A stretch of 17,658 bases of DNA from a virus (Duplodnaviria; Heunggongvirae; Uroviricota; Caudoviricetes), in the IMG/VR virus record IMGVR_UViG_2671180727_000013, positions 1-17,658 of that record. One strand, written 5' to 3'. The translations under genes and the position numbers were made by a program. This document shows positions 1 to 17,658 of this stretch, piece by piece (position 1 is the stretch's first letter; each line of letters begins with the position of its first letter). A model generated the notes under the pieces. The model had not been told where the DNA came from and did not search any database. It was given only the letters and a program-made list of their open reading frames with translations.

Positions 1-46
1 CTGCCCGTTGACGGACTTCAGGGGAAAAACGAGTATTTTTAGTCAT
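1..46 (-). CDS. IS3-family transposase OrfA, N-terminal 15 codons only (runs off window)
   Basis: ATG at 46..44 preceded by AAGAGG Shine-Dalgarno; translation MTKNTRFSPEVRQRA; frame open to window edge. Confidence 0.55.
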   Translation of the reverse strand, partial: MTKNTRFSPEVRQRA

Positions 47-100
47 CCTGTTTACCTCTTTCTCAGGAAGTTTAGTCTCCAGGATTCCCGGGGCGGTTCA
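1..100 (-). mobile_element. IS3-family insertion sequence, terminal ~100 bp (element continues beyond window start)
   Basis: Minus strand from position 100 reads TGAACCGCCCCGGGAATCCTGGAGACTAAACTTCCTGAGAAAGAGGTAAACAGG then ATG at 46..44. It starts with TG as IS3-family ends do. The ORF it opens (MTKNTRFSPEVRQRA...) matches my recollection of IS629/IS1203-like OrfA N-termini. Not verified by search. Confidence 0.6.
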
Positions 101-563
101 GTATGACCGTTTCTGCTTTGAACTCCGGTACACCAACGAACTCTTTAACCTTCATCTGGTAGCCGGTTCTGTCAGTTTTGATGACTTCCTGTTTGCCCTC
201 TATAAACTGCTCGCGCCACTCATCTCGACGGGAAGCTGGCATGATCAGCAAAACGTTAGTCATGTCCGTGACCTTCCTCCAGTACTCGGCCCAAATATTC
301 TGTTTCACCCATTCCAGATCGACTTTATCCAACCAACCTCGATTTAAACGCGAGCGATCTTCATCTGGTCGATGGTTTAGTCTCAGCAGGCGATTAATCA
401 TGTTGTGGCGTTCGTCGCCATAAACGAAGTCGTGAACCTGATACATGAAGGCGATCTCTTTCTCGCACTCGGCCACAATTTCGTGGATGACGTTCATTTC
501 CTGCCGATAGTCGATAGCAGTGTTTGAGTTGGCATCGTCGATGATGGAAAGGGCTGTATTCAT
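72..563 (-). CDS. hypothetical protein; last ~9 codons (LNRPGNPGD) are read from the IS terminus, so the native 3' end is probably disrupted or replaced
   Basis: 163-aa ORF; ATG at 563 with GGTG 6 nt upstream; IS boundary at 100/101 lies inside the reading frame. Confidence 0.5.
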   Translation of the reverse strand: MNTALSIIDDANSNTAIDYRQEMNVIHEIVAECEKEIAFMYQVHDFVYGDERHNMINRLLRLNHRPDEDRSRLNRGWLDKVDLEWVKQNIWAEYWRKVTDMTNVLLIMPASRRDEWREQFIEGKQEVIKTDRTGYQMKVKEFVGVPEFKAETVILNRPGNPGD

Positions 564-603
564 AATTGCACCATTAAGAAGTGATTTGTTTAATGGTGCA
601 ATT
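564..603. repeat. perfect 14-bp inverted repeat (AATTGCACCATTAA / TTAATGGTGCAATT) with 12-bp spacer, abutting the start codon at 563
   Basis: Read directly: 564..577 is the reverse complement of 590..603. On the minus-strand mRNA the 3' arm covers the GGTG ribosome-binding site. Confidence 0.7.
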
Positions 604-666
604 ATTTCAAAAATGAAAAGGTACTAAATAGAAATAAACAGGCAATCCTTCAAATAAAGGCATTGG

Positions 667-1281
667 CTAATCATACTTGGAGGTATTTATCACCAGAATT
701 TTGTTTGTATAAATCTTCTTAATATCCCATGTGACATTACCGGAATACCATTGACCGTTATATACTTGGTTTCCAGTTGCACCTGTCATTGTTACATAGA
801 CAGGTCTGTCGTAATCGGTTCGTCTATAGTTATATACTCCAACCATAGCAGGCATTACCGCACATGGATACCCCATATCTATTGTAAATTGAGGGTCAGA
901 AATAGTGATAAGTTTCGCATCAAGGGGCATCATCTCACCGTGATACACCATTGCGCCTGCGCTGTTATACATGGCAATGCCATAGCCAGAATGTGGTAAC
1001 ACCATATCAGAAAAAGCATAAACTGTTATTGTTCCGGGGCTACCATTTACCTGATGCAATCTGAGAGCATTGTATCCGTTACTATGCTCATGAATAAACA
1101 TCATGTTCGCCTTATTACTGCTTTTTATGAAAAAAAAACATGATTTGTTTGATGGGATTGATGTTTGAAAAACAGAACCTTTAGATGTAGACATTGTCCC
1201 TTTATTAATCAGATTTTGCGGAGTAAATTCTGGACTCATCCACAAACTTCCATCTGATTGAGTAATTGACATCCCGAACAT
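667..1281 (-). CDS. hypothetical protein, Tyr/Asn/Gly/Thr-rich, encoded in visibly AT-rich DNA
   Basis: ORF 667..1338 trimmed to the ATG at 1281 (MFGMSIT...), which sits 2 nt after the TAA of the upstream gene with TGGGGA as SD. Contains a T9 run (plus 1130..1138) encoding FFF. Confidence 0.5.
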   Translation of the reverse strand: MFGMSITQSDGSLWMSPEFTPQNLINKGTMSTSKGSVFQTSIPSNKSCFFFIKSSNKANMMFIHEHSNGYNALRLHQVNGSPGTITVYAFSDMVLPHSGYGIAMYNSAGAMVYHGEMMPLDAKLITISDPQFTIDMGYPCAVMPAMVGVYNYRRTDYDRPVYVTMTGATGNQVYNGQWYSGNVTWDIKKIYTNKILVINTSKYD

Positions 1282-1283
1282 AA

Positions 1284-1565
1284 TTATCCCCAGTATGTGT
1301 ATATGTAAGAACCAAGCCCCGTATATAAATTTGACCAACTAACCGTATTTCCATTAATAGTAACTGTTGGAACAGGTAAATTAATGTAGTTGTCGTTGTT
1401 AAGAGGCATCAATGACCACACGGCATGTAGCGATTTACCCGGTGGCGGATTGGAGTACGTCTTAGAGCCTGATGACGCAGTAAATCGATCAAGAAAAAAA
1501 ATAGGAGTAAGGAAGCCAGTAACGTTAATTCCTTTATTGTTGTAAATCCCTGTACCGTATGCCAT
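1284..1565 (-). CDS. hypothetical small protein (93 aa), Tyr/Asn/Gly/Thr-rich
   Basis: ATG at 1565 with AAGGA SD 6 nt upstream; TAA at 1284; contains a T8 run (plus 1494..1501). Confidence 0.5.
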   Translation of the reverse strand: MAYGTGIYNNKGINVTGFLTPIFFLDRFTASSGSKTYSNPPPGKSLHAVWSLMPLNNDNYINLPVPTVTINGNTVSWSNLYTGLGSYIYTYWG

Positions 1566-1592
1566 TTTTCATCCTTGTTTTTTATCAACACA

Positions 1593-1616
1593 ATATGGCC
1601 GATCATGCGGCCATAT
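1593..1616 (-). other. intergenic stem-loop (9-bp stem ATATGGCCG/CGGCCATAT, 6-nt loop) between the 189-aa and 93-aa genes
   Basis: Inverted repeat read directly; no clear U-tract after it on the minus strand, so a processing or attenuation role is as likely as termination. Confidence 0.3.
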
Positions 1617-1620
1617 CAGA

Positions 1621-2190
1621 TCAATTAGAGCTTTGAAAGGCTTTGTGTGGCTGTGTTGCGAGGTTATGTCGATGGCTTAACTCACGCATCATGTCTTCAA
1701 GCCGACTCTTTGTGTCGTCGAGTTGGTCGGCCATTGCTCCCAAAAGCTGACGAACGGCCATCGGATCATCGCTGTTTAGTGATGGCATTTTATAACCCGC
1801 CTGAGAAGACATAAGATTGAACGCAGACATCAACATCGTTAGAGAGGATTTAAGCCCAGCAATTTCACGATCTTTGCTGGCAATAATCGCCTCACTCTTG
1901 TTAGTGTCATCAGTTCGTTGAGTCTCGCTCACCATATCCAAAGTCGCCTGCAACTTATCAGCGCGCTCTTTTTCAGCAAGATAATGAACACCGAAATGAT
2001 GTGCTAAAGCTACAACCTGAGTTGGCTCTTCAAAGGTGGACTCAAAATTAAGTGCTGTAACCACTCTCTCAAATATGGAAACGTCTTCTATTCCTCGAAG
2101 AATGGCTAACATTTTGACCAGTTCATTAGCATCCATTTCTTCGAATAAGGCGTTTTGTTCATCAGCTATCGCTTTGCATTTCTTGCACAT
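1621..2190 (-). CDS. hypothetical protein (189 aa), begins MCKKCK
   Basis: ATG at 2190 preceded by the conserved leader AGGAAAAACAC and the upstream cassette; no family recognised. Confidence 0.55.
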   Translation of the reverse strand: MCKKCKAIADEQNALFEEMDANELVKMLAILRGIEDVSIFERVVTALNFESTFEEPTQVVALAHHFGVHYLAEKERADKLQATLDMVSETQRTDDTNKSEAIIASKDREIAGLKSSLTMLMSAFNLMSSQAGYKMPSLNSDDPMAVRQLLGAMADQLDDTKSRLEDMMRELSHRHNLATQPHKAFQSSN

Positions 2191-2204
2191 GTGTTTTTCC
2201 TAAT

Positions 2205-2227
2205 GCTTAAACAAGTTGTTTTCTTAT
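2205..2227 (-). promoter_or_regulatory. conserved upstream cassette, copy 1 (minus strand ATAAGAAAACAACTTGTTTAAGC), 14 nt upstream of the 2190 start
   Basis: One of three near-identical 23-nt elements with palindromic core AAACAAcTTGTTT, each followed by the leader AGGAAA(A/G)(A)CAC ATG. Confidence 0.5.
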
Positions 2228-2294
2228 TGGCTTTATTGTGATGTGGCATAAAAGGGGAGCAAGCTAAACGTAAAGGTGCAAACTCTCTATTTCG

Positions 2295-2327
2295 GTCAAC
2301 GAAACACAAGGGCCATTTGGCCCTTGT
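2295..2327 (-). terminator. putative intrinsic terminator after the 52-aa gene
   Basis: 9-bp stem ACAAGGGCC/GGCCCTTGT with 4-nt loop (2306..2327), followed on the minus strand by GTTTCGTTG. Confidence 0.45.
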
Positions 2328-2329
2328 CA

Positions 2330-2488
2330 TTAACACGTTGCTTTACGGACTAGCGGATAAGCGAAGTAGATCGCCAGACCAATGAGGACGCCATCAGAAA
2401 TGACAGACATCATCTTTCCCGTAAAATCCACCAACACCGCCATCACCAGAAGAGCAATGACGATCACAAGCCGGAATCTCTCAAGCAT
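2330..2488 (-). CDS. small hydrophobic protein (52 aa; MLERFRLVIVIALLVMAVLVDFTGKMMSVISDGVLIGLAIYFAYPLVRKATC), predicted membrane protein
   Basis: Not in the ORF track (below 60 aa). ATG overlaps the TerB-like stop as TAATG; two hydrophobic segments; terminator hairpin directly downstream. Confidence 0.45.
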   Translation of the reverse strand: MLERFRLVIVIALLVMAVLVDFTGKMMSVISDGVLIGLAIYFAYPLVRKATC

Positions 2489-2913
2489 TAGAGATAAGCA
2501 TCCAGTGACAACTGAAGCGCCTGGGCGATCTTTTTAAGTGCCTGCTCTTCTTGTTCACCAATGCCGTCCTGATCGGCAATATCAAGGCACAGACACAGTA
2601 CATCTACTGCATCATTAGTCCCGGCCACATCAGCCAGCTCACGTAAAGCCTGGGCATTAGCGCGGCGCGGTGAGGCTTCGTATTGAGCACGAATATTGGC
2701 GCTCATTTGGGCAATCTCACCAGCAAACGGAGAAAACGCAGGCAGAGCTGCAATTGTTTTCTCAAGAATGGAAATTTCCTTTGCGTCGCATGTGCCATCG
2801 GCATAGGAGATCATGTACGCGCCCCACACGGTGGCTTCAACCGCATCTCGGTTCTCCATTTTTTTGACCTCGATAACAGCTTTACGAGTTTTCTTTTTGA
2901 ATAAACCTAACAT
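2488..2913 (-). CDS. TerB-like protein (tellurite-resistance TerB fold)
   Basis: 141 aa; ADG...E and LCLCLDIADQDGIGEQEEQALKKIAQAL segments resemble the two TerB repeats; ATG preceded by the conserved leader AAAGGAAAGCAC. Confidence 0.5.
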   Translation of the reverse strand: MLGLFKKKTRKAVIEVKKMENRDAVEATVWGAYMISYADGTCDAKEISILEKTIAALPAFSPFAGEIAQMSANIRAQYEASPRRANAQALRELADVAGTNDAVDVLCLCLDIADQDGIGEQEEQALKKIAQALQLSLDAYL

Positions 2914-2933
2914 GTGCTTTCCTTTTGTTATTT

Positions 2934-2956
2934 GTTAAAACAAGTTGTTTTCTAGT
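2934..2956 (-). promoter_or_regulatory. conserved upstream cassette, copy 2 (minus strand ACTAGAAAACAACTTGTTTTAAC), 20 nt upstream of the 2913 start
   Basis: Same 23-nt element as at 2205..2227 and 13155..13177; perfect 7-nt palindrome arms AAAACAA/TTGTTTT. Confidence 0.5.
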
Positions 2957-2965
2957 TACATGAAT

Positions 2966-3008
2966 TGCTTACGAAAAGACGGTCAATGCATATGCACTAA
3001 CAACCGTC
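2966..3008 (-). terminator. putative terminator-like hairpin after the 62-aa membrane protein gene
   Basis: GACGGT / ACCGTC stem enclosing the palindrome TGCATATGCA, followed on the minus strand by TTTTCG; short stem and long loop, so weak. Confidence 0.35.
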
Positions 3009-3195
3009 AGAAATAACCAAGTACCGAACCAACTGGAAAAACAAAAATCCCAACAACACGAGCCAAGGTCATACCAGCCTGAAACTGGAGATCGCCAGAG
3101 CAAACAAGTTTTATAATGTTCGATACCCAACCGGCGGCCATGAGGGCAAGAATTGCCAGCCAAATTTTTCCAAAGTGATTTGAAAACCAGTTCAT
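3007..3195 (-). CDS. small membrane protein (62 aa, two hydrophobic segments)
   Basis: ATG overlaps the upstream TGA as ATGA (translational coupling); AAGGCGG SD; hydrophobic sequence WLAILALMAAGW ... VVGIFVFPVGSVLGYF. Confidence 0.5.
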   Translation of the reverse strand: MNWFSNHFGKIWLAILALMAAGWVSNIIKLVCSGDLQFQAGMTLARVVGIFVFPVGSVLGYF

Positions 3196-3410
3196 ACAAC
3201 CGCCTTAGTCACAGCATGATCCTGAGTAACTGGATGAACTTGAGGTATCGCATCCACCGTCATCCCATCCAGAGTGACAGGACGCTCTACTGGAGTGGTG
3301 GTAATTGTCGTCGACGGAGGTGTGGTGATGGATGAACCCGGCATCAAAAGGCTCTGGCCGGCTGGAACGGCTATCGTCGCCAGTGAAACTATAATGAGAA
3401 CGTAGGCCAT
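3192..3410 (-). CDS. small secreted Thr/Pro-rich protein with N-terminal signal peptide (72 aa from the ATG at 3410)
   Basis: MAYVLIIVSLATIAVPAGQS looks like a type I signal peptide with an AxA-like site; AGAGG SD upstream; no lipobox Cys. Confidence 0.45.
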   Translation of the reverse strand: MAYVLIIVSLATIAVPAGQSLLMPGSSITTPPSTTITTTPVERPVTLDGMTVDAIPQVHPVTQDHAVTKAVV

Positions 3411-3699
3411 TGGTTTCAGCCTCTTTCTTTGAAAATTTTCCATTCGAACTGTCCTTGTTGTTTTTCTCCTTCACTAAAGGCCGTGTACTTTTCGCTTCGC
3501 GTGAAGAACCAGAGGTAACAATCGCCCCCACGTTCGCAACAACTGACGCTTGCTTATCTAAACGTTCATTCAGCAACCGAACGGCAGTCTCTAGTTCATC
3601 AAGACGTGACAGAACACGACCGCTAAATAATTCGGCCAAAATTTGACGTAGTGAACGAGGACGTTTAGTTGCAGAAGTGAAATAGGTTTGACGTGCCAT
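3205..3699 (-). CDS. hypothetical protein; N-terminal ~90 aa credible, C-terminal low-complexity part overlaps 3192..3410 in another frame and may be spurious
   Basis: ATG at 3699 with GGAG SD 5 nt upstream; 3' end uncertain. Confidence 0.4.
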   Translation of the reverse strand: MARQTYFTSATKRPRSLRQILAELFSGRVLSRLDELETAVRLLNERLDKQASVVANVGAIVTSGSSREAKSTRPLVKEKNNKDSSNGKFSKKEAETNGLRSHYSFTGDDSRSSRPEPFDAGFIHHHTSVDDNYHHSSRASCHSGWDDGGCDTSSSSSYSGSCCD

Positions 3700-3714
3700 G
3701 TGGACTCCATCCAG

Positions 3715-3750
3715 TGTCAGAAAGAGTTGCGGCTGGCGATTGCCAGCCGC
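3715..3750 (-). terminator. putative terminator-like hairpin downstream of the RNase H gene
   Basis: 9-bp GC-rich stem GCGGCTGGC/GCCAGCCGC with 4-nt loop (3729..3750), followed on the minus strand by AACTCTTTCTG. Confidence 0.4.
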
Positions 3751-3844
3751 CTTTCTCGTTCCATCCTGGAACTGTGTCTTACCGACACATTGTCATCCTG
3801 ACGCCGATAAGATACATGATTTAAAATGATAGGTAAACACTTAC

Positions 3845-4438
3845 TTACTGTTTGTTGTAAACAAAACCAATATCTTTCTTGTGAGGCATATCTGCTGCGG
3901 AAAAAGCTGCGATCTTCGCGAGTCGATCACATATTTCATTTTCACGATGCCCGGCGTGACCTTTAACCCACTTCCAGCGAACATTATGTCGACTTGCAGC
4001 CTCATCCAGACGCTTCCACAGATCAACATTCTTTACCGGTTTTTTGTCAGAAGTCACCCATCCATTGCGTTTCCACCATTTCATCCACTGTGTCATGCCG
4101 TTTTTCAGATACTGGCTATCAGAGTGCAAAATAACGTTGCATGGATATTTCAAACGCTCCAGCCCGATAAGTGCCCCCATCATCTCCATGCGGTTATTGG
4201 TGGTGCTATGAAAACCATCTGAGAACTCGCGTTCCTCACCACGATACTGGAGAACTATACCGTAACCGCCCGGGCCACCCGGATTTTTAAGGCAAGAGCC
4301 ATCACTGAAGATTTTCACGGTTTTAAGCTGGGGATTGAACTCTACGACAGGCGTTGTGGAATTGGTGCGGGGAGAATTTTTGTTTTTGGCTTTTTTGCGA
4401 GTTTTTTCTTGCGATCGGGCTGGTGTCTTCGTCGTCAT
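3845..4438 (-). CDS. rnhA: ribonuclease HI-like protein with a ~40-aa basic N-terminal extension
   Basis: [57 protein letters not shown] match E. coli RNase HI motifs. Start set at the ATG at 4438 (MTTKTP) because AGGAG lies 5 nt upstream; the track's longer ORF start has no SD. Confidence 0.85.
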
Positions 4439-4439
4439 A

Positions 4440-5021
4440 TAAACTCCTGAATCAAGCGCCGCGCCGATTTTTTCCTCGCGCGTGCGCACACGCGTGCGTG
4501 TTAATAATTATTAAAATAAACAAATTACTTCCCAGAACAGGTTTTTATAAACCTGAACTGAACGAACGAAGTGAGTGAAGTTCACCTCGAACGAAGTGAG
4601 AGGTTGTCTTTTCAGGTAATACTCTCCCAGGGAGGTGAGTATAAAAATCCCTCACCAACCTGGTCGTTTCATAACCTGAAAAGTTATGGCCTAAGTCTAC
4701 TGCCAGCTTAGACTTGGGAAGTTATGGATGACAGCACCCCAGAACCGAGATCTTCCCACACTTTATGAAGGGGAGTACTGGATTCAACCTCTCTAAACAC
4801 CCCAGACTCGACAATCATAAAGTGACCCTTGTCTCCGCTCACTTTGGTTCCCCCTTCCCCGACACCTAAACGGCACCGGTTCTACGCTGGTAGTGAGCTT
4901 TTTTAAACCTGACGCCAGTGACGCTTACCCCCACCCATCAGGTCGAGTCTCCAGTCTACGACTGGAAACTATCAGATCTTAGCACTTACAATTCACTTTA
5001 TGAATAGTTTGTACTTATCTA
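4440..5021 (-). other. ORF-poor, repeat-rich structured intergenic region (candidate ncRNA, regulatory hub or origin)
   Basis: No ORF of 60 aa or more on either strand; 12-nt direct repeat GAACGAAGTGAG at 4564..4575 and 4589..4600; several hairpins and long-range inverted repeats (details in findings). Confidence 0.4.
4477..4500. repeat. 24-nt perfectly alternating pyrimidine-purine GC-rich tract (Z-DNA-prone), with embedded palindromes
   Basis: CGCGCGTGCGCACACGCGTGCGTG read directly; includes CGCGTG-CGCA-CACGCG hairpin; followed by 14-bp AT palindrome TTAATAATTATTAA at 4501..4514. Confidence 0.6.
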
Positions 5022-5252
5022 TCATTGTGATTGATTATTTTCTCTACCATGTAGTTGAACATTCAAGGCAAACACCTCATTGATCAACTCACCTAAAAGC
5101 TGTTCAACAAGTTCGCGATGCTCGCCAAGATGCAAGCACTTAATTGCCCATTCGTACAAGTTGAAAGCCTGCTCACGATCTTTCATCATTTCACGAGCCT
5201 GGGCCAGAAAATCGCTCTCTACGAGCGCAACGACATTAGTCGGGTATGACAT
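5022..5252 (-). CDS. hypothetical small protein (76 aa from the ATG at 5252)
   Basis: Track ORF 5022..5276 trimmed to the internal ATG that has AAGGA 7 nt upstream; the first ATG lacks an SD. Confidence 0.45.
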   Translation of the reverse strand: MSYPTNVVALVESDFLAQAREMMKDREQAFNLYEWAIKCLHLGEHRELVEQLLGELINEVFALNVQLHGRENNQSQ

Positions 5253-5340
5253 GTTGGTTTCCTTAAAGTGGTTCATAAAATCGATTTTAAAGCGTCTGGG
5301 AAGGGGTTCTAGTGGATTCTGTAGTGATGTTCAGGTCTGG

Positions 5341-5416
5341 AGTCTCTGATACAAAACAGCCTGCTTCCGTATATTAATAATTAATATGTAGTTATTTATA
5401 TATACAGAAGCAGGCT
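5341..5416 (-). terminator. terminator-like long hairpin after the methyltransferase gene
   Basis: Arms 5358..5374 and 5400..5416 pair over 17 positions with one mismatch; 25-nt AT-rich loop containing ATTAATAATTAAT; minus-strand tail GTTTTGTAT. Confidence 0.35.
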
Positions 5417-5437
5417 AATTACAGACGCCAGAACAAA

Positions 5438-6031
5438 CTAAGCAGCCTTCTTTGATGGTCTTTTTTTCCTGATCACATTCGCAGGATCATACCCTCCCAG
5501 ACTTTTCATGACGTCCAAAGGGATCTTGCTTATAGAGTGCCCAGCGTCCTGACAAAATCCTCGAAAAACAACGAGCATACTGCCACCTGGGTTGATGTTT
5601 ACTTCTACCTGACCCAGATTGACGTCAGGCTCGACAAACGCTACGCGGCCACCAGACAGAATAATCGTCTCATTCGCACACTCTGTTGCACGCTCATACC
5701 ACTTTGTATCTAGGGATTGAGGAATTAGCATCACTGTTGTAACTCCGCGAGCCTGCTCACGTATAGCCGCATCAATCCAGGGGGAGATTTTGGAGTAGGG
5801 TGGATTGAGGAAGGCAATTGTACCTGGCTGTCCCCATTCAGATTTCAAAGCATCACGCTCAACGCCTATGAAATTAGGCAGCTTTGCATTGTCCTTGTTG
5901 CAGGCAACGTCAACATCAAATGTCACTCCAAGATAACGTTGAATGGCAGAAAACAGCCAGTCAGGTGTTCTCCAGAGGTCACGAAGAGAGTTGTCGCGCT
6001 TTCGCTGTTTGATTTTTTCGGCTGCAATCAT
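5438..6031 (-). CDS. phage Dam-family DNA N6-adenine methyltransferase
   Basis: N-terminal WRTPDWLF...FDVDVAC and catalytic NPPYS (motif IV) in the order typical of the phage Dam family (PF05869-like); 197 aa; no adjacent restriction-endonuclease gene seen. Confidence 0.75.
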   Translation of the reverse strand: MIAAEKIKQRKRDNSLRDLWRTPDWLFSAIQRYLGVTFDVDVACNKDNAKLPNFIGVERDALKSEWGQPGTIAFLNPPYSKISPWIDAAIREQARGVTTVMLIPQSLDTKWYERATECANETIILSGGRVAFVEPDVNLGQVEVNINPGGSMLVVFRGFCQDAGHSISKIPLDVMKSLGGYDPANVIRKKRPSKKAA

Positions 6032-6090
6032 CTTCTTTCTCGATAGGTAAGTAAATACCTATTTTTGCATTTGATTTTATGTCTGGCAAT

Positions 6091-6139
6091 CAAATAAAAC
6101 GCGCCAGAAATGCAAACGAGAAGCTCTCTGGCGCGTTTT
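6091..6139 (-). terminator. intrinsic terminator after the acidic-protein gene
   Basis: Stem AAAACGCGCCAGA / TCTGGCGCGTTTT (6097..6139), flanked by A/T runs so it has a U-tail in both orientations; minus-strand tail GTTTTATTTG. Confidence 0.6.
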
Positions 6140-6143
6140 TGTG

Positions 6144-6174
6144 GTGCTGGGTATGTGATTGGCTTACCCAGCAC
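6144..6174. other. second tandem hairpin (10-bp perfect stem GTGCTGGGTA/TACCCAGCAC, 11-nt loop)
   Basis: Read directly; no U-tract, function unknown. Confidence 0.4.
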
Positions 6175-6214
6175 TATAAAGCTCTCTATGGGCTTTATTT
6201 TCAGTAGGGGAACG

Positions 6215-7024
6215 TCATCCAATAGTGTACTCCGCGACAAACTTCTTAACGATCGGTGATTCTTCGTTCAATGTTAGATTTCCACCGCCTCTAACGGCAA
6301 TTCCTGTCGCTGGAAATACAGCCATCATTTGCCCAGCCTGAGTTGACGCAGTGTTAAGCGGATACGGTTTTTCTGGATTGCTCATTAAAGCAATCTTAAT
6401 ACTATTACTTGTAGCCTTCTTTTCTGTGAGAAGGTGTCTCATGGAAATTACCGTGTAAACACTAATATCTGGACCTCCGCTAAACCAATTAAGAAGGTTT
6501 AATATCTTATCCTTTGCTTTGACAGGCGCGTTATCGTAAGCGTCTAAGAAAATATCTTTTTCTAAGCCCGCTTTATTGAAAAACGAATCATCTTTATCAC
6601 TTAAAGTAAAACGAGGACCTCTTGCAGTACGAGCTTTTTTATTTGTATTGCTATCATTTGACTGTTGAACTTTTAATTCATCATTAACCTCAACACACTC
6701 TTCAACCTCAATAAATCCCAATTGTTCTGGCTCGTTTTCGGCAGCTTCAACACTTTCAGCGTTAATTACGTTTATAGGCTCATGCGCTAACTCCAACTCA
6801 TTTAAAGCAGAGCTGAAATCACCTGCTTTTTCTTCATTGAACAGTTCTTCGGCAACATCATCAGAACTCATGGCTACGCCAGCATCTAGGCCGAGCAGCA
6901 GATCGTCAATATCATCAGTATTTTCAACCTGTGCAGCTTTTTTTACTGGTTCATCAAGTGATTGCAACATGGCTGTCAGCTCGTCCAGATCATCATTTGT
7001 CATTACATTTTCAACCGAACTCAT
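6215..7024 (-). CDS. hypothetical protein with strongly acidic N-terminal half (Asp/Glu-rich)
   Basis: 269 aa; AGGAG SD 8 nt upstream of the ATG; N-terminal ~120 aa dominated by D/E; no catalytic motif recognised. Confidence 0.55.
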   Translation of the reverse strand: MSSVENVMTNDDLDELTAMLQSLDEPVKKAAQVENTDDIDDLLLGLDAGVAMSSDDVAEELFNEEKAGDFSSALNELELAHEPINVINAESVEAAENEPEQLGFIEVEECVEVNDELKVQQSNDSNTNKKARTARGPRFTLSDKDDSFFNKAGLEKDIFLDAYDNAPVKAKDKILNLLNWFSGGPDISVYTVISMRHLLTEKKATSNSIKIALMSNPEKPYPLNTASTQAGQMMAVFPATGIAVRGGGNLTLNEESPIVKKFVAEYTIG

Positions 7025-7133
7025 GTAAGTCTCCTTCTGTTTGGTTACATTTGCGTTTCGATGGCTACATTTTGACTAAACCTATCAGGCGGAAAAGTAT
7101 TAAATACAGGCAGGAAATGATTGAAAGGCGACT

Positions 7134-7178
7134 GTTCTTTAAAAGAAAGCCTACTTTAAACTTTTTAAAGTAGGCTTT
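7134..7178 (-). terminator. intrinsic terminator immediately after the exonuclease gene
   Basis: ~15-bp stem (7146..7160 with 7164..7178) and 3-nt loop; T-runs on both sides (minus tail TCTTTTAAAG, plus tail TTTTGTTTT). Confidence 0.6.
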
Positions 7179-7182
7179 TGTT

Positions 7183-7740
7183 TTACACAATTTCAGAGGG
7201 TAATTTAAAAAATCCGTACTTATTACGTGCCTTAAAGAAGCATTGCATCATTAAGTTTGTGTCATATAAGGCACTATGTGCTTTGGCATGATCGTATATA
7301 AAGCCAAGAGAGAAGGCCAACTCTTCAAGGCGGGGACGTTTACCGTCTTCTGTGGCCCACAATCCCGATAACATAGTATCTATAACAGGAACTTCTGGCA
7401 GTCTTACTCCATACCCTGAAAACTCGTGTCGAATAAATGGTATATCAAATGCTTCGCCGTTATGAGCAACCCACACACTACATGCCCCCATATAAGCGCC
7501 AATTTCGCTGGCATGATTTGACAACAAAGGTTCAGCTGCGAGCTGTTCCAATGAAATGCCATGAACGGCTTGAGCTTTCGGATCTATGTTTCTGCGAGGG
7601 TTAAAACGCATCTCCAGACTATCAATATGTCTCTGTGTCTCCAGTTCATAGCGGGTAATTGCGATTTCAATAATTTTATGACCAGCAAGGAAATCCAGTC
7701 CCGTAGACTCGATATCGATGCCTGCAACAATCGTTGTCAT
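7183..7740 (-). CDS. DnaQ-like DEDDh 3'-5' exonuclease
   Basis: Exo I GIDIESTGL, Exo II HNGEAFDIPF, Exo III HSALYDT; AAGGAG SD; 185 aa. Confidence 0.8.
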   Translation of the reverse strand: MTTIVAGIDIESTGLDFLAGHKIIEIAITRYELETQRHIDSLEMRFNPRRNIDPKAQAVHGISLEQLAAEPLLSNHASEIGAYMGACSVWVAHNGEAFDIPFIRHEFSGYGVRLPEVPVIDTMLSGLWATEDGKRPRLEELAFSLGFIYDHAKAHSALYDTNLMMQCFFKARNKYGFFKLPSEIV

Positions 7741-7749
7741 CAGAACTCC

Positions 7750-8169
7750 TTACAACTTCTTAGCGCCCTTAAGTAGTGCGCTACGTACAAATTGAGCCGC
7801 TTTTTTCAAAGTTTCTTCACTGGTTTCACAGACAATCGGATCTTTCCACTTACCTGACACAGTGTTGAGAATATTGATTTGGTTGCTATCCAGACAAACA
7901 GAGATATAAAGCACCGTGCCACCAGCCAGCATCAAATGCATAGGAAACAGAGGCTTTTTACTGCCTTCACTGAACTGAGACATGGCGATGTTAATGGCTT
8001 CACCCACTTGTGTACCAACAAGCCCCTGCGCAGTTTCGAATATGGCACGAATAGCCAGACGAGCCTCTCGATCGCTCATAAGCGACCGGGAATGTTCGTC
8101 CGCTACACGAATCAAAGCCTCTGTTGTTTTCCGATCCAGTTCATCTTCAAGCAACATTTCACTAAACAT
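7750..8169 (-). CDS. hypothetical protein (139 aa)
   Basis: ATG with AAGGA SD 7 nt upstream; its stop overlaps the RBS of the exonuclease gene; no family recognised. Confidence 0.5.
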   Translation of the reverse strand: MFSEMLLEDELDRKTTEALIRVADEHSRSLMSDREARLAIRAIFETAQGLVGTQVGEAINIAMSQFSEGSKKPLFPMHLMLAGGTVLYISVCLDSNQINILNTVSGKWKDPIVCETSEETLKKAAQFVRSALLKGAKKL

Positions 8170-8230
8170 TTTTTATCCTTAACCCATTTTGAGAGTTTTA
8201 TTGTCGCAATGTCGAAGAGGCGAACAATTT

Positions 8231-8875
8231 CTAATGAACGGTCACTCGGCCACAGAACCGGTTTTCTATCTTTTCTACAGCGTTATCTAGCATTCTCATC
8301 ACTGATCTGGCTCTTGCTTCAACCGTGCGATATCGGTTGGAAACGACGAAGGTTTGCAGATCTCCCCTTTGCGGATGCAGGTGAATTTTTGTCAGTTCCC
8401 CGCACATCAACGCATCAATACGAGCGACATACAGACGGTCTAATGATGCTCGTTGTGACCGCAAGTAATCTCGCTCTGAGAGAGCGACCCCCGGGCGTAG
8501 GCCAGCAATGGCGTTAAAGTTTGAAATAGCAGTTTTGTGGCAAAACTTTTCGATATCGAGGGCTAACTCAATACACCGATCTTCATTTGTATGGCCGACC
8601 AAATCCAACGTGTAGGCCATAACATCAGCAGGTGTGCGATCGATAACAAAGCCTTCAACACCACGCGTAAGTAGCTCTATATGCTTTGCTATTTCCATTT
8701 GAATCTGAAGCCGCTCATATAGAGGCATAGAATCACCTACTCGAACACCGAGGCGGCTCATCAAACTTCCGACACCAGCATCCACGTAAGGGATTCCGTA
8801 ATGTTTGTCGATATATTTAGCCAGGGTTGTTTTCCCACTGCCCTGAGCACCAGTGATCCCAATCCGGTAATCCAT
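8231..8875 (-). CDS. P-loop nucleotide/nucleoside kinase-like protein
   Basis: Walker A GITGAQGSGKTT near the N-terminus (dephospho-CoA kinase / uridine kinase style); start overlaps the DHFR stop as TAATG; substrate not assignable. Confidence 0.5.
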   Translation of the reverse strand: MDYRIGITGAQGSGKTTLAKYIDKHYGIPYVDAGVGSLMSRLGVRVGDSMPLYERLQIQMEIAKHIELLTRGVEGFVIDRTPADVMAYTLDLVGHTNEDRCIELALDIEKFCHKTAISNFNAIAGLRPGVALSERDYLRSQRASLDRLYVARIDALMCGELTKIHLHPQRGDLQTFVVSNRYRTVEARARSVMRMLDNAVEKIENRFCGRVTVH

Positions 8876-9351
8876 TACGACCTTCTGTATACGATCTGCG
8901 AAAAGCCAGGCTCTTCCTCGCTGGCTCGTTGGGTATAAGCTGTTTCAACAGGCACAAAGCCTAAATTACGCATCATGCTTGCCGGGAAGAATGCATCGGC
9001 GTTTGGCACATCAACGCCGATGTGGGAGAGCCAAATCTCTTCAACATGCGGCATGAATAGCGAGTAAATTTGTTCCCCGCCAATCACCCACACAGGCTCT
9101 GGTAATCGCAACACATCATCCACACCAGCAGGGTAGAATCCATTTGGTACAAAGCCATGAGAGCGCGTCAAAACGAGGTTATGACGCTCTGGAAGAGGGC
9201 GTTTGAGACTTTCCATCGTTTTACGCCCCATAACGACAGTGGCGTTTTTGGTGAGTCTCTTAAATAGCTTCAGATCGGTAGAACAACGCCAGGGGAGTTC
9301 ATTCGCTATGCCGATCTCATAGTTACGGCCAACAGCAGCGATCATCTTCAT
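8875..9351 (-). CDS. folA: dihydrofolate reductase
   Basis: MKMIAAVGRNYEIGIANELPW...VVMGRKTMESL...RPLPERHNLVLTR...VWVIGGEQIY aligns with E. coli FolA motifs; 158 aa; ATGA overlap with upstream gene. Confidence 0.85.
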   Translation of the reverse strand: MKMIAAVGRNYEIGIANELPWRCSTDLKLFKRLTKNATVVMGRKTMESLKRPLPERHNLVLTRSHGFVPNGFYPAGVDDVLRLPEPVWVIGGEQIYSLFMPHVEEIWLSHIGVDVPNADAFFPASMMRNLGFVPVETAYTQRASEEEPGFSQIVYRRS

Positions 9352-9761
9352 TTGCTCACCTCATAGATGACCGGTCGATGGTGAGAGTCGGCTAAAGCGG
9401 CACGGAGTCGAGGATCGTGCACCAGCGCAGCGATAAGCAGATCGCCTTTATGCTCCGCTAATGTGCGCTTAATATGCTTCTCATAACTGGTGCCATTCGG
9501 TACGAGATGAAGCCAGTCATAATCAACGCCAAAATCTTTCAGCCATCGTTTAGTTGGCGCTTCAAGAGTTTCAGAGCGGCTACTGATAAGCACCACTTCA
9601 GCCCCTGAGCGAGCAAAACCACGCAACATACGGCTGGTGGGGAAAATGAGTTCATCACCGGCAATGAGCTGGCCTGCATCCGCGTCAGATACTGATTTAC
9701 GATGGCTGGCATTTGCCAGCACACCTTCAATTTCGCATAAGACATACATACCTCTTGCCAT
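9348..9761 (-). CDS. hypothetical protein, possibly HAD-like fold with Glu in place of the motif I Asp residues
   Basis: Start set at the ATG at 9761 (MARGMYVLCEIEGVL), 1 nt after the thymidylate synthase stop; hhhExEGvL then VVLISSRSE then K...GD pattern is reminiscent of HAD motifs I-IV. Weak. Confidence 0.3.
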   Translation of the reverse strand: MARGMYVLCEIEGVLANASHRKSVSDADAGQLIAGDELIFPTSRMLRGFARSGAEVVLISSRSETLEAPTKRWLKDFGVDYDWLHLVPNGTSYEKHIKRTLAEHKGDLLIAALVHDPRLRAALADSHHRPVIYEVSK

Positions 9762-9762
9762 A

Positions 9763-10866
9763 TCACACCGCCACTGGAACCTTGATCCACGATAGAGGGT
9801 CATAGCCAAGAATTAAAACCTCGTCCCATTTGAAATCATCCAACTCTGACCATTCATGAGGGAAAATAACGACCGGATCTGAATGCTCTGGAGCCTGTCG
9901 TTTCATTAGCTCACACACACCTTCCATGTGGTTGTTGTACAAATGCACGTCAAAGCCAAAATGCACAAATGCACCGGCCATGTGACCCGTAATCTTCGCG
10001 AGAAAATGAGTGAGAATGCCATAGCCAGCAATATTGAATGGCATACCAACAAAAGTGTCTACGCTACGCTGTACGAGGCAGGAGTTGAGGATGCGTTTGG
10101 GGATTCCAAGTTCATCCAGTTCAGCTTCAGTAACACTGCCGTCCATCTCCAGATCGTATAGCATCTTGGTGTAGATAGACTCGTAACCGAGGCGACTGTG
10201 TTGAAGACCAATGTCAGTTGCCATCGTTAAACGGGTTTCAAAATCCAGCTCACGACTCCACAAAGAGAAGACAAAGTGGCAAGGTGGCAGTTTCATATCC
10301 TCAAGCTCGCCTACGTTCCATGCGTTAAGCATGATGCGACGATCGGTAGGGTTCGTGCGCAGTGTATCGACAATACGCTGTAGCTGATCGATTTCACGGG
10401 ACAGCACTACGCGATCTTCACTGATACCCAGGTATCCCTCGACTTTGTACCCGCGTTCACGGAAAGTAGCGATCTTGCTCAGATATTCACTATGGCTCAC
10501 GATGCGGGTATCTTCCCATCGACGCCACTGCTTACCGTAAACCGGCCCCAAATCGCCATTCTCATCGGCCCATGCATCCCAAATCTTAACGCCGTTATCC
10601 TTGAGAAATTGGATGTTGCCCGTGCCTTTCAGATACCACTCAAGTTCGACAAGCAGTGGCTTAAGATTTACCGCCTTTCCAGAAATAAGCGGCACAGTCC
10701 CACCAGTAAGCATGTAGTAAGAGGGAACGTAGCAGGTGCTTAAAGTACCAGTGCCTGTGCGATCATCAGCCTGCACGCCGCTTTTAAGCACCGTCTCAAT
10801 AACTTTTGCATACGATGCGTTTGTTACCTGACCGTTCGTATGCTCACGATTCAAAAGGAGTGACAC
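9763..10866 (-). CDS. thyA: thymidylate synthase (ThyA-type) carrying two large insertions
   Basis: DRTGTGTLS, IWDAWADENGDLGPVYGKQWRRW, DRRIMLNAWN, LPPCH, QRSVDTFVGMPFNIAGY (Asn retained, so dUMP-specific), HLYNNHM. Start ambiguous: GTG at 10866 has GAGG 5 nt upstream; the track's GTG at 10893 has no SD. Confidence 0.85.
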   Translation of the reverse strand: MSLLLNREHTNGQVTNASYAKVIETVLKSGVQADDRTGTGTLSTCYVPSYYMLTGGTVPLISGKAVNLKPLLVELEWYLKGTGNIQFLKDNGVKIWDAWADENGDLGPVYGKQWRRWEDTRIVSHSEYLSKIATFRERGYKVEGYLGISEDRVVLSREIDQLQRIVDTLRTNPTDRRIMLNAWNVGELEDMKLPPCHFVFSLWSRELDFETRLTMATDIGLQHSRLGYESIYTKMLYDLEMDGSVTEAELDELGIPKRILNSCLVQRSVDTFVGMPFNIAGYGILTHFLAKITGHMAGAFVHFGFDVHLYNNHMEGVCELMKRQAPEHSDPVVIFPHEWSELDDFKWDEVLILGYDPLSWIKVPVAV

Positions 10867-10940
10867 AAAAACCTCACAAAGATAAGTAACCACTTATTCA
10901 TTGCGTGAGTTTACATTTATTGAGAGAACAAGACCAGACA

Positions 10941-10969
10941 GATAAAAAAATGGTGGCCATAGGCCACCA
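10941..10969 (-). terminator. intrinsic terminator after the 289-aa gene
   Basis: 8-bp stem TGGTGGCC/GGCCACCA with 3-nt loop, followed on the minus strand by TTTTTTTATC. Confidence 0.7.
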
Positions 10970-11037
10970 AAAACGAATAGTTGTTTCAGAAATTTAACGC
11001 GCCAACGCAATATACACAGATAGATAACTACCTACAA

Positions 11038-11907
11038 TTATTTTTTGATCATTCCGTACATTGCTGAGGCTTTAGCTTGCTCAACAAAGGAGGATAAATC
11101 GACATCACTATAGGTTGGAGACTTCAGAATCTTTCCATCGGAAATTCGAAAACCGATCATCTTATCGGTGCCATCAGCATGGCGGAATCCCAGGTCTGAA
11201 GAGTCGTATTTGCAGTTGGCCACAGCCTGGCGACGTTCCTCAACATCAGCAGGCCATAATTTTGTCATGTTAGACCGATGAATTTCGCCAACCAGCTCGA
11301 CTACATTGATACCGAGGAAATCAGCCAGTCGATAGGTCATCATGCACGCCACATAGATTTTGTTCATGACACGGCGCAGTTCCTGAATCAGCTCAGAATC
11401 CTTAACAGTCTTGTTCTCAAGTTTATCTGCCAGCTCTTCGAGCATACATGACGCCTCACGAGCTTCCTGAAATGGCATTGCCATATCATCGAAAACAGTG
11501 TTACCGGGCACAAAAATTGTCTGCATAAAGCGATCAATGCTCTGTTCCTGCGTGTAATAGGTCATGCCGGTAGAAATACCACCTTTGATGGCGACCATCG
11601 TACCAACACCAACGTATAAAAAGTCGGCCATTGCATCCAGCAGTTGCTCAATATCCCCATTCATTGCGGCTGGAATACCTTCCACTACAGCTTCTTCATG
11701 AATCAGGCTTGCACGGAGACGAAGCAGCTCTGGTGTCGGCATAACGCGTCTCGGATGCTGGAAGAGTTCATGAAACTGATCGACCATCTTGTAAATACTT
11801 TCAGTAGCTACACCATGACCTTCATGCAACTCATATGGTTCTGGCTTAAATCCAATGAGTCGATCGGTGGCAAGTTTCAGGTGGTCAGTCAGTTTGGTAA
11901 AGTTCAT
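11038..11907 (-). CDS. putative all-alpha NTP pyrophosphohydrolase (MazG / dimeric dUTPase-like), tentative
   Basis: 289 aa; two EE-x-x-E ... D-x-x-x-D/E acidic helix patterns (LIHEEAVVEG...DIEQLLDAMADFLYV; EAREASCMLEELADKLE). Assignment by motif impression only. Confidence 0.35.
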   Translation of the reverse strand: MNFTKLTDHLKLATDRLIGFKPEPYELHEGHGVATESIYKMVDQFHELFQHPRRVMPTPELLRLRASLIHEEAVVEGIPAAMNGDIEQLLDAMADFLYVGVGTMVAIKGGISTGMTYYTQEQSIDRFMQTIFVPGNTVFDDMAMPFQEAREASCMLEELADKLENKTVKDSELIQELRRVMNKIYVACMMTYRLADFLGINVVELVGEIHRSNMTKLWPADVEERRQAVANCKYDSSDLGFRHADGTDKMIGFRISDGKILKSPTYSDVDLSSFVEQAKASAMYGMIKK

Positions 11908-11942
11908 GCTAGTTTTGTTCCTTCTTAATTCTTGTGATCCAT

Positions 11943-11967
11943 TGTGGCCCAGCGTTGCCAGGCCACA
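11943..11967 (-). other. stem-loop in the nrdB to downstream-gene spacer (7-bp stem TGTGGCC/GGCCACA, 11-nt loop)
   Basis: Read directly; no U-tract, so probably not a terminator. Confidence 0.3.
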
Positions 11968-11984
11968 TAATGCTTTGTATCGGT

Positions 11985-13127
11985 TTACAGGTCAGCAAAC
12001 TGGCTTAGAGAAGCCTTATCCACGGTAGAATCGATCTGACCTACCAGATATGTGCTTTGCTCTGCCTCTTGTGGTGCAATTTGCAGTGTGTCGGTTAACA
12101 ACCACTTGTTCATCCAGACCAGCGGATCGGTGGTAACCTCTGGAAATAAAGCCTTCAGGCCAAGACGATTCATAGCCAGATTGGTGCGGTATTTTACATA
12201 GGTTTTGAGAATATCCGCGTTTAAACCAATCATCGAACCGTCTTTGAAGAGATAGTCTGCCCAGTTCATTTCTTGTTCGGCGACTGATTTCATGGTGTCG
12301 TAAATGACGTTTTCTTCATCAGCAGCAATCTCTTTCCACAATAAACCTTCGCGACCGGTACGCATGAAGCGGATCATGCGTTCAGTTCCTTCGCAATGCA
12401 GAGCTTCATCACGGGCAATAAAGCGCATAATTTTGGTGTTACCCTCAAGCAACTTCCGTTCGCCAAAGGCAAACGTACATGCAAAACTTACATAGAAACG
12501 GATCGCCTCAAGCGCATTAATGGACACCAACGTGCGGAAAAGCTGACGGTGCAAAGGGTATGGCTCCCAGCCATATTCATTTACGTACAGACGTTCAAAC
12601 TCCTTCTCACCTAACGACTGGCGCTCGCAGGTCATCCCATAAAGCCTGTCATATTCAGCAGAGATACTGATCGCTCGGTTGATGATTTCTTCATCCGTAA
12701 CAATACCGTCAAAAACAATGCTCGGATCGTCCACCATGCCACGAATAATGTGGGTGTAGCTGCGGCTATGGATAGTCTCAGAGAAAGACCACGTTTCAAC
12801 CCACGTTTCCAGTTCAGGAATAGAGATAAGCGGCAGCAGCGTTGCATTTGGACTACGTCCCTGAACTGAATCGAGTAACGTTTGATAACGGAGATTGCTC
12901 AGAAAAATGTGACGTTCGTGGTCCCGCAGCTTCGTGTTGAAGTCGATACGATCGCTCGAAATATCAACTTCTTCCGGCCGCCAGAAGAAAGACAATTGAC
13001 GTTCAATCAACTTTTCAAAATCACGGTATTTTTGCTGATCGTAACGTGCCACGTTGACAGATTGTCCGAGGAACATAGGCTCTTTGGTTGCATCATTAGC
13101 ACCCAAACGGAACGTTGAATATGACAT
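11985..13127 (-). CDS. nrdB: ribonucleotide reductase class Ia small (beta) subunit
   Basis: 380 aa; long stretches near-identical to E. coli NrdB as I recall it ([90 protein letters not shown]). Uninterrupted, no intron. Confidence 0.95.
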
Positions 13128-13154
13128 GTGTTTTTCCTTTTTCTTTTTTGGTGC

Positions 13155-13177
13155 GTTTAAACAAGTTGTTATCTTAT
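13155..13177 (-). promoter_or_regulatory. conserved upstream cassette, copy 3 (minus strand ATAAGATAACAACTTGTTTAAAC), 27 nt upstream of the nrdB start, plus a partial extra TTGTTTAAAC copy at 13180..13189
   Basis: Third copy of the 23-nt element; lies between the nrdA terminator and the nrdB RBS, followed by the leader AAGGAAAAACAC ATG. Confidence 0.5.
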
Positions 13178-13195
13178 GTGTTTAAACAAGGCTTA

Positions 13196-13228
13196 CAAAT
13201 CAAAGAGAAGGTGGGGATATCCCCCACC
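13196..13228 (-). terminator. intrinsic terminator immediately after nrdA
   Basis: GC-rich hairpin GGTGGGG-ATATC-CCCACC (13210..13228) followed on the minus strand by TTCTCTTTGATTTG. Confidence 0.6.
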
Positions 13229-13233
13229 ATATG

Positions 13234-15549: not shown

Positions 15550-15552
15550 GTA

Positions 15553-15588
15553 TCACCAAATAAAGAGGGCCACTATATTTAGTGGCCC
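15553..15588 (-). terminator. intrinsic terminator between the RuvC-like gene and nrdA
   Basis: 9-bp stem GGGCCACTA/TAGTGGCCC with 4-nt loop (15567..15588), followed on the minus strand by TCTTTATTTGG. Confidence 0.6.
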
Positions 15589-15613
15589 ATGTTAATAGAT
15601 AAGCACTTACCTA

Positions 15614-16192: not shown

Positions 16193-16201
16193 ATAGTCTC
16201 C

Positions 16202-16934: not shown

Positions 16935-16945
<11 letters not shown>
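16202..16945 (-). CDS. hypothetical protein (247 aa), translationally coupled between the ATPase lobe and the RuvC-like gene
   Basis: ATG at 16945 lies 11 nt inside the upstream ORF; no motif of a known nuclease or phosphoesterase family recognised. Confidence 0.5.

Positions 16946-17658
<713 letters not shown>

Follow-up and report, generated by a model that had tools for sequence, protein, structure and literature searches.

Among the Dam-family DNA adenine methyltransferases of phages, the characterised members (PF05869/TIGR01712) include the Dam enzymes of phages T1 and HP1 and of the Stx phage VT2/933W, and such characterised members target GATC. Acidic proteins that imitate DNA have been described in several forms: Ocr (T7 gp0.3) and ArdA are compact, folded proteins in which the whole surface imitates B-DNA and which have no DNA-binding domain, and the acidic tails of HMGB1 and of the C-termini of SSB, T4 gp32 and T7 gp2.5 mimic DNA in cis. 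Gp44 of phage SPO1, an RNA polymerase inhibitor, joins a DNA-binding motif to a flexible acidic DNA-mimic domain that binds the polymerase beta and beta′ subunits, and its residues 56-122 are 57 % Asp or Glu with no basic residue (PMC8208478). Here we describe a Dam-family methyltransferase gene and a neighbouring gene for a highly acidic protein in a 17,658 nt stretch of viral DNA (IMG/VR record IMGVR_UViG_2671180727_000013, positions 1-17,658; the whole of this stretch is called the window), which is an insertion sequence (IS)-bounded piece of a phage-plasmid of the SSU5/pHCM2 type. Elements of this type are often found in Enterobacteriaceae of clinical origin, among them Salmonella Typhi and bacteria that carry antibiotic resistance, and the regulation of their lytic cycle is essentially unstudied. 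A sequence-only reading of the window had proposed that the two genes form a protective module, in which an orphan methyltransferase is joined by an acidic DNA mimic that blocks restriction. Our analysis favours instead two independent phage-plasmid genes that are not a functional pair, with the acidic protein acting as a DNA-associated adaptor or regulator of the lytic replication or transcription programme, and we put the probability of this interpretation at roughly one-half.

Domain plan of the acidic protein

The gene at 6215-7024 (minus strand, as are all the substantial open reading frames (ORFs) of the window and the hairpins, promoter candidate and protein segments described below; the stop codon occupies 6215-6217) encodes a 269 aa protein that is the most acidic of the 23 window proteins, with an isoelectric point (pI) of 4.29, 49 Asp or Glu residues against 23 Lys or Arg, and a net charge of -26. 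The charge is distributed very unevenly: residues 1-125 include 35 acidic and 4 basic residues (28 % acidic, net -31), residues 126-269 are basic (pI 9.5), and residues 136-269 make up a nearly neutral globular domain (net +1, with a family median of about 0). The strong acidity recognized in the sequence-only reading is therefore confirmed, as is the asymmetry between the two halves, although, at 28 %, the earlier statement that Asp and Glu dominate the N-terminal half is a slight exaggeration.

Residues 10-30 (6935-6997) form a conserved amphipathic acidic helix with the motif (S/D)LDxLxAMLxxLD, recognized from conserved alignment columns and from an AlphaFold2 model built with 56 diverse sequences; a regular expression for the motif matched 87 of 184 family members, whereas shuffled N-termini gave 17 matches in 184. 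The acidic segment that follows (residues 31-124; 6653-6934) varies in both sequence and length, with indel-rich and poorly conserved alignment columns, and is predicted to be largely disordered, with a weaker helix at residues 37-50; over 56 family members the median net charge of reference positions 51-124 is -14. Ahead of the globular domain there is a Lys/Arg/Pro-rich basic arm, NKKARTARGPRF (residues 125-140; 6605-6652), with a net charge of +5 (median +3.5 over 56 members). The C-terminal domain of about 130 residues (residues 141-269; 6218-6604) is strongly conserved in close and distant relatives and is predicted to consist of three helices and a winged helix with the topology H1-strand-H2-H3-hairpin wing, the recognition helix of which carries the signature TAxxQxxQxM, kept in all six phage groups. 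Values of the predicted local distance difference test (pLDDT) in the AlphaFold2 model are about 98 for residues 141-266, 73-85 for the helix at residues 10-30 and 46-69 for most of residues 31-135. Since the charge pattern of successive segments (-9, -14, +3.5, -2, +2) is kept across the family and conservation is concentrated as described, the acidity appears to have been selected as composition, and the helix motif and winged helix as sequence. The predicted plan of helix motif, acidic disordered linker, basic arm and winged helix is thus fixed across the family.

Judged by its profile matches, the acidic protein is a member of a large and conserved phage protein family that has no Pfam entry and no characterised homologue. 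It matches phrog_5235 over residues 1-269 (E-value 3.4e-149) and phrog_3932 over the C-terminal domain, both of which are PHROGs of unassigned function, and the same two are matched by 56 of 56 diverse relatives. When the C-terminal domain is used as a search profile, 639 cluster representatives (at 50 % identity) are recovered, of which 175 reach E <= 1e-10, and the domain is almost always located at the extreme C-terminus of proteins of 210-330 aa; the N-terminal parts of 135 distant representatives average 23.7 % Asp or Glu against 9.9 % Lys or Arg. No Pfam family is matched at E <= 0.01 by the acidic protein or by 55 diverse relatives, there is no match in NCBIfam or PADLOC, and the PDB, queried by sequence with the protein alone or with a profile of 56 sequences, yielded only chance low-complexity matches. 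Neither Pfam nor NCBIfam places the protein in any of the named winged helix-turn-helix (wHTH) families (MarR, ArsR, PadR and others). Only winged-helix proteins are found among the matches listed by the fold searches, and Foldseek gave no significant or informative match to either BFVD (viral predicted structures) or the PDB. Homology to T5 D5, a DNA-binding replication and late-transcription factor, was considered and rejected (hhalign probability 0.6 %).

These properties bear directly on the proposal that the protein is a DNA mimic directed against restriction or other defences. Its net charge and composition are comparable to those of known mimics, and no homology to a structural or scaffold family was found. 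However, structure prediction yields no rigid folded acidic surface, only one or two isolated helices and low-confidence coil; the acidic half is predicted to be mostly disordered and is variable, and the other half, which follows a basic arm, consists of a winged helix that is highly conserved and would be needless in a mimic. Membership of the Ocr, ArdA and ArdB/KlcA families is not indicated by Pfam, by the PDB sequence and profile searches or by the listed fold matches.

The methyltransferase gene and the neighbouring transcription units

The gene at 5438-6031 encodes a 197 aa protein (PHROG 111) that is an ordinary orphan phage Dam-family N6-adenine DNA methyltransferase. It matches Pfam Dam (PF05869) with an E-value of 2.5e-38 and 131.8 bits (cut-off 28.1) and NCBIfam TIGR01712, 'phage N-6-adenine-methyltransferase', with 113.9 bits (cut-off 97.05), it has the catalytic (D/N)PPY motif within FLNPPYS (NPPY being residues 76-79), and its best PADLOC model is 'orphan methyltransferase' (oMTase); no close relative has a solved structure. 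Searches of 20 other ORFs of the window revealed no restriction endonuclease domain, and the annotation of Cyrano, a complete relative, includes none, so the view of this enzyme as one without an endonuclease partner is upheld. By analogy with the characterised family members its target is probably GATC, and most plausibly it methylates the element's own DNA. Self-protection is the default, standard reading of such an enzyme, and its earlier description as self-protective is a reasonable one. The frequency of GATC was considered as a clue to function and dropped as unremarkable, there being 456 sites in Cyrano (observed/expected 0.83).

A mainly regulatory or replicative role, in plasmid-origin function, packaging or gene timing, of the kind described for the Dam of phage P1, is a possibility to be taken seriously, though we consider it clearly the less probable. 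The element exists as a plasmid prophage, RepA and partition genes being annotated in Cyrano, GATC is neither avoided nor enriched there, and the gene is highly conserved, with 83-87 % identity among SSU5-like loci where the acidic protein has only 53-59 %. Since E. coli already has Dam, protection of GATC would be redundant in this host, and it is this that makes a regulatory role worth weighing. On the other side, the gene is transcribed only at background level in the lysogen, as would suit a function in the lytic cycle, the target motif is itself predicted by analogy, and two SSU5-like elements live without the gene.

The acidic-protein gene lies upstream of the methyltransferase gene on the same strand and behind a double hairpin, as the sequence-only reading had it, and the 183 nt spacer between them folds at -64.2 kcal/mol (z = -7.0 versus shuffles). 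The first hairpin (6144-6174; GUGCUGGGUA ... UACCCAGCAC), found as an inverted repeat, has 10 bp and no T-run, and is kept in relatives with two double changes. The second (6092-6140; AAAAACGCGCCAGA...UCUGGCGCGUUUUAUUU) resembles an intrinsic terminator in having a T-run, and among 13 diverse sequences the pairing of its stem is kept through compensatory double changes at three positions. A further terminator-like hairpin, likewise found as an inverted repeat and with 15 bp followed by CUUUU, is located at 7141-7178, directly 3′ of the exonuclease gene that precedes the acidic-protein gene, and the latter thus has terminator-like hairpins on both sides in the window. The methyltransferase gene forms its own small cassette. 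A consensus scan, which is weak evidence, gives a candidate sigma-70-like promoter at 6061-6089 (TTGCCA, 17 nt, TG-n-AAAAAT), of which the TTGC and ATG.AAAAAAT blocks are kept in an alignment of relatives; a 20 bp palindrome of a recurrent type, ATAGGTAttt acTTACCTAT (6043-6062; no strand assigned), is 11 nt upstream of the ATG; and a terminator-like hairpin with a 17 bp stem followed by GUUUUGU (5351-5416), again found as an inverted repeat, lies directly 3′ of the stop codon, in a region (5277-5440) that folds at -44.1 kcal/mol (z = -5.1).

In published RNA-seq data for an E. coli LF82 lysogen the acidic-protein and methyltransferase genes are both transcribed near background, with log2 values of 3.7 to 6.0 for the acidic-protein gene (CYRAN_78), 3.9 to 6.5 for the exonuclease gene and 2.8 to 4.1 for the methyltransferase gene, so that CYRAN_78 parallels the exonuclease gene and the methyltransferase gene is lower (PMC9928086 S1 Table). 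Because of the conserved terminator between them, the acidic-protein and methyltransferase genes are unlikely to form one transcription unit, and the hairpins on both sides of the former, the promoter-like site and terminator belonging to the latter, the RNA-seq values and the distributions given below together point to two separately transcribed genes.

Gene order was compared in 85 SSU5-like loci taken from IMG/VR, species-representative genomes (3 loci) and Logan assemblies. The conserved upstream neighbour of the acidic-protein gene encodes a DnaQ-like 3′-5′ exonuclease of 185 aa (DEDDh, RNase T family; 7183-7740; Pfam RNase_T E-value 6e-22, with epsilon-like NCBIfam matches below their cut-offs), and it is present within 1.5 kb at 81 of 82 informative loci. 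The methyltransferase gene is found within 1 kb downstream at 70 of the 79 informative enterobacterial loci; at most of the others insertions push it to 1.3-2.0 kb downstream, and it is absent from two SSU5-like elements (L012 and L013). Beyond the enterobacteria, the acidic protein is encoded by Pseudomonas phage nickie and phages related to it, by Stenotrophomonas phages (BUCTxx99) and by the Rhizobium phages RHEph10 and B1VFA. In each of these groups, as in SSU5-like elements, its gene is part of the block for nucleotide metabolism and replication and has a DnaQ-like exonuclease gene upstream, either adjacent or a few small genes away (that of B1VFA is an unannotated gene of 188 aa, taken as the exonuclease by assumption), and a hairpin is present 3′ of the acidic-protein gene, with a clear U-run in nickie and BUCTxx99, but at none of these loci does a methyltransferase gene adjoin it.

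The acidic-protein gene is also the last in a longer block, consisting of an AAA/kinase-like gene, a gene for a protein of 135-142 aa (PHROG 5373 in the window), the exonuclease gene and the acidic-protein gene itself, which recurs in SSU5-like elements (compare 7183-8875 of the window) and, judged by gene order and size, in Stenotrophomonas BUCTxx99. Because the whole region, the methyltransferase gene included, is syntenic in the enterobacterial SSU5-like clade, adjacency there is no proof of functional coupling, and the proximity of the acidic-protein and methyltransferase genes in this one clade reads as ordinary synteny. We note that what follows the acidic-protein gene differs from one SSU5-like element to another. 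In L013 a Tad2-like gene (PF11195, anti-Thoeris-type; 7377-7691) takes the place of the Dam methyltransferase gene, a sign that the terminator may be followed by a hotspot for accessory or anti-defence genes. A protective module could draw some support from the frequent adjacency in enterobacterial loci and from the capacity of this variable stretch to hold a gene of anti-defence type. It is difficult to reconcile, however, with the conserved terminator between the two genes, with the retention of the acidic protein in distant phages and in two SSU5-like elements that have no methyltransferase, and with a distribution in which the acidic protein seems to behave as a lineage core gene, unlike the usual patchiness of anti-defence genes.

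Possible roles of the acidic protein

Because of its helix-linker-arm-winged-helix architecture, we infer that the acidic protein is a DNA-associated adaptor or regulator. The basic arm and the winged helix would bind nucleic acid, probably phage DNA, and the acidic arm with its conserved helix would recruit or titrate a putative protein partner, such as RNA polymerase or a component of the replisome, or might fold back on the DNA-binding surface and tune binding, or do both. Several points weigh against this interpretation. The globular domain is nearly neutral and has few invariant basic residues, so the argument for nucleic-acid binding is weakened and depends on the fold and on the adjacent basic arm; winged helices can also mediate protein contacts; synteny with the exonuclease gene may reflect plain vertical inheritance; the regularity with which the methyltransferase gene follows in enterobacterial SSU5-like loci leaves some coupling within that clade conceivable; and the DNA-binding role is read from architecture in a family with no characterised member.

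A rather improbable alternative is that the protein is a flexible DNA-mimic host-takeover factor of the SPO1 Gp44 type. It would be held on DNA by the winged helix while its disordered acidic arm filled the nucleic-acid cleft of a host enzyme, for example RNA polymerase, and inhibited or redirected it. The combination of a DNA-binding module with a flexible acidic domain does match (PMC8208478), acidity is kept across the family as composition and not as sequence, and the linker is predicted to be disordered. The acidic part is, however, far less acidic than that of Gp44, with its 28 % acidic residues and 4 Lys or Arg set against the 57 % and zero basic residues of Gp44; the order of domains is reversed; there is no PDB sequence match, and Gp44 is not among the matches listed by fold, its presence in the libraries being unconfirmed; and the conserved N-terminal helix motif suggests a specific partner, not non-specific mimicry. 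Should the acidic arm turn out to act as a flexible DNA mimic, or to serve in specific recruitment, the protein would be the second DNA-anchored disordered mimic after Gp44. To about the same degree we entertain the bolder idea that it founds a class of phage factors not described before, combining sequence-specific DNA anchoring with a long acidic arm that bears the 'LDxLxAMLxxLD' helix; such a factor might read the 18 bp palindrome that recurs in these elements, with the arm recruiting or blocking RNA polymerase or a defence or replication enzyme.

Less probable still is a role as a replisome accessory, in which the protein would tether or load the element's DNA polymerase III (Pol III) alpha subunit and epsilon-like exonuclease on DNA, or bridge them to host factors through the N-terminal helix. 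Cyrano does encode a Pol III alpha subunit, a helicase, a primase, a ligase and a gp32-like SSB, and the exonuclease-then-acidic-protein order is found in five phage groups. The exonuclease is also just 185 aa long; E. coli epsilon is longer, and its C-terminal tail binds alpha. This argument is one of synteny only, though, and in the window a terminator-like hairpin stands between the two genes. Inspection by eye revealed no canonical clamp-binding motif in the N-terminal helix, the candidate residue Q21 (in QSLDEP) not being conserved in distant members, and we know of no replisome subunit with such an architecture. The anti-restriction mimic working together with the methyltransferase fares no better and, on the evidence of fold, terminator and distribution given above, is improbable.

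Dropping the false label of 'anti-restriction pair' should prevent misannotation, and what replaces it is a domain model, clear and open to testing, for a phage family that is large, conserved and without a Pfam entry, together with two recurrent intergenic palindromes.

Palindromes, the surrounding element and known systems

The palindrome upstream of the methyltransferase gene belongs to the type TA(R)GTAA-N4-TTAC(Y)TA (20 bp form ATAGGTAAG-N3-TTACCTAT), which occurs in the window at 3829-3848, 6043-6062 and 15595-15614 (3 sites versus 0.02 expected). Cyrano (L009-L011) has 11-15 sites versus about 0.2 expected, nearly all of them intergenic and situated before or between early and late genes (portal, tail fibre, holin, SSB, SbcD, NrdA, thymidylate synthase and methyltransferase). 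The same positions are occupied in SSU5, the core is invariant in 13 relatives, and sites are at 5997-6016 in L003 and at 2069, 3669, 6392 and 10908 in L007. In Rhizobium phage B1VFA a 12 kb piece has the same half-sites and spacing four times, directly following -10-like TATAAG boxes; they are absent from 12 kb pieces of nickie, RHEph10 and BUCTxx99. Co-occurrence was considered as a sign that the winged helix reads this palindrome and was rejected, because nickie, RHEph10 and BUCTxx99 carry the protein without palindrome enrichment in their 12 kb pieces, unlike SSU5-like elements and B1VFA, which leaves such a link plausible but otherwise unsupported. The palindrome may be an operator, a promoter-proximal element or a 5′ untranslated region hairpin.

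A second palindrome, AACAA-N-TTGTT(TAA), is present at 2207-2220, 2936-2949 and 13157-13170 of the window, 17-30 nt upstream of three start codons (three sites versus 0.24 expected). In Cyrano it is found at about 12 intergenic loci, 9-74 nt upstream of the genes for the small terminase subunit, parA, a helicase, nrdB, a LexA-like gene and others, and it is likely to be the operator of a phage regulator. The two palindromes together may define regulons of SSU5-type elements.

Around the two genes the window shares 97.5-99.4 % identity with three E. coli phage-plasmids of about 108 kb, CMS-2020a, Cyrano (pLF82) and PhiR41_1, and Salmonella phage SSU5 is syntenic with the window, with equal gene order and an acidic-protein homologue that is 57 % identical. 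The neighbouring genes form a nucleotide-metabolism and replication block, with SbcC-like, RuvC-like, NrdA, NrdB, MazG, thymidylate synthase and DHFR genes, an AAA/deoxynucleoside monophosphate kinase-like gene, a gene for a 139 aa protein of no assigned function and the DnaQ-like exonuclease gene, and with RNase H and TerB-like genes farther on. In Cyrano (CYRAN_49; L009, 46757 onward) the replication proteins encoded include, besides the Pol III alpha subunit, UvsY, UvsW and RecA. The gene at 9763-10893 is labelled 'ThyX' in Cyrano, a name that seems mistaken, since its product matches Pfam Thymidylat_synt (ThyA type; E-value 7.6e-78) in two stretches. This implies an enzyme of the ThyA type that is interrupted by an insertion of roughly 50-100 residues. 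The RNase H protein (3845-4489; pI 9.9 overall), with Pfam RNase_H at residues 57-195, is extended at its N-terminus by a basic stretch of about 55 residues in which Lys, Arg, Thr and Ser abound, and the Cyrano annotation starts shorter.

Both ends of the window (1-100 and 17538-17658) are foreign to the phage-plasmid and match IS- or transposase-associated sequence of many unrelated phages; the left end resembles the terminus of an IS3-family (IS629-like) element, and the right end matches sequence annotated as transposase and ATP-binding protein. Since both are IS-like and foreign, the window is either a stretch between two IS insertions or a contig that breaks at IS copies. They cut off a DUF4942 methyltransferase gene, of which about 155 codons are left, and truncate the SbcC-like gene (ORFs 72-563 and 16935-17588).

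Between 4560 and 5021 on the minus strand there are 460 nt with no convincing ORF, the folding of which beats shuffles (z = -4.7). No Rfam match was found in this segment, and a relaxed scan of 4450-5450 gave only spurious microRNA-type matches on hairpins; tRNA and Rfam scans of the whole window gave nothing at gathering thresholds. The 44-codon CYRAN_81 (4708-4842) lies within the segment, and in the LF82 lysogen it is transcribed about 12-fold over the prophage background, its neighbours not being so. The segment may therefore specify a lysogeny-expressed non-coding RNA or small protein.

Set beside described systems, the methyltransferase differs in nothing notable from the orphan Dam-family enzymes of phages, which it resembles in its profile scores above curated cut-offs, its small size, its NPPY motif and its want of a cognate endonuclease. 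The wHTH regulators and centromere binders found by fold (ArsR/SmtB, MarR, PadR, MecI, Fur, TubR and AspA) have 0-19 % identity to the acidic protein with Foldseek E-values that are not significant, and none of these families has an acidic N-terminal arm or a conserved N-terminal helix. Ocr and ArdA share with it a strong net negative charge and an origin in mobile elements, but its acidic half is predicted to be largely disordered and is variable, and its conserved half is a winged helix; the compact carboxylate-array fold of Ocr, ArdA and ArdB/KlcA is not seen in the predicted structure, where pLDDT in this part is 46-69. With HMGB1, SSB, gp32 and gp2.5 there is no homology, and the tail here is N-terminal, about 125 residues long and provided with a conserved helical motif; like them, however, it places an acidic disordered segment on a putative nucleic-acid-binding domain, and by analogy it could autoinhibit or recruit. 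SPO1 Gp44 has no detectable homology to the acidic protein, the reverse order of domains and twice the proportion of acidic residues (57 % versus 28 %), and the winged helix with a basic arm and the conserved N-terminal helix motif are features of the protein described here. Nevertheless, in carrying a small folded DNA-binding module and a disordered acidic segment in one polypeptide, as is predicted here, Gp44 is the nearest documented functional analogue of the acidic protein.

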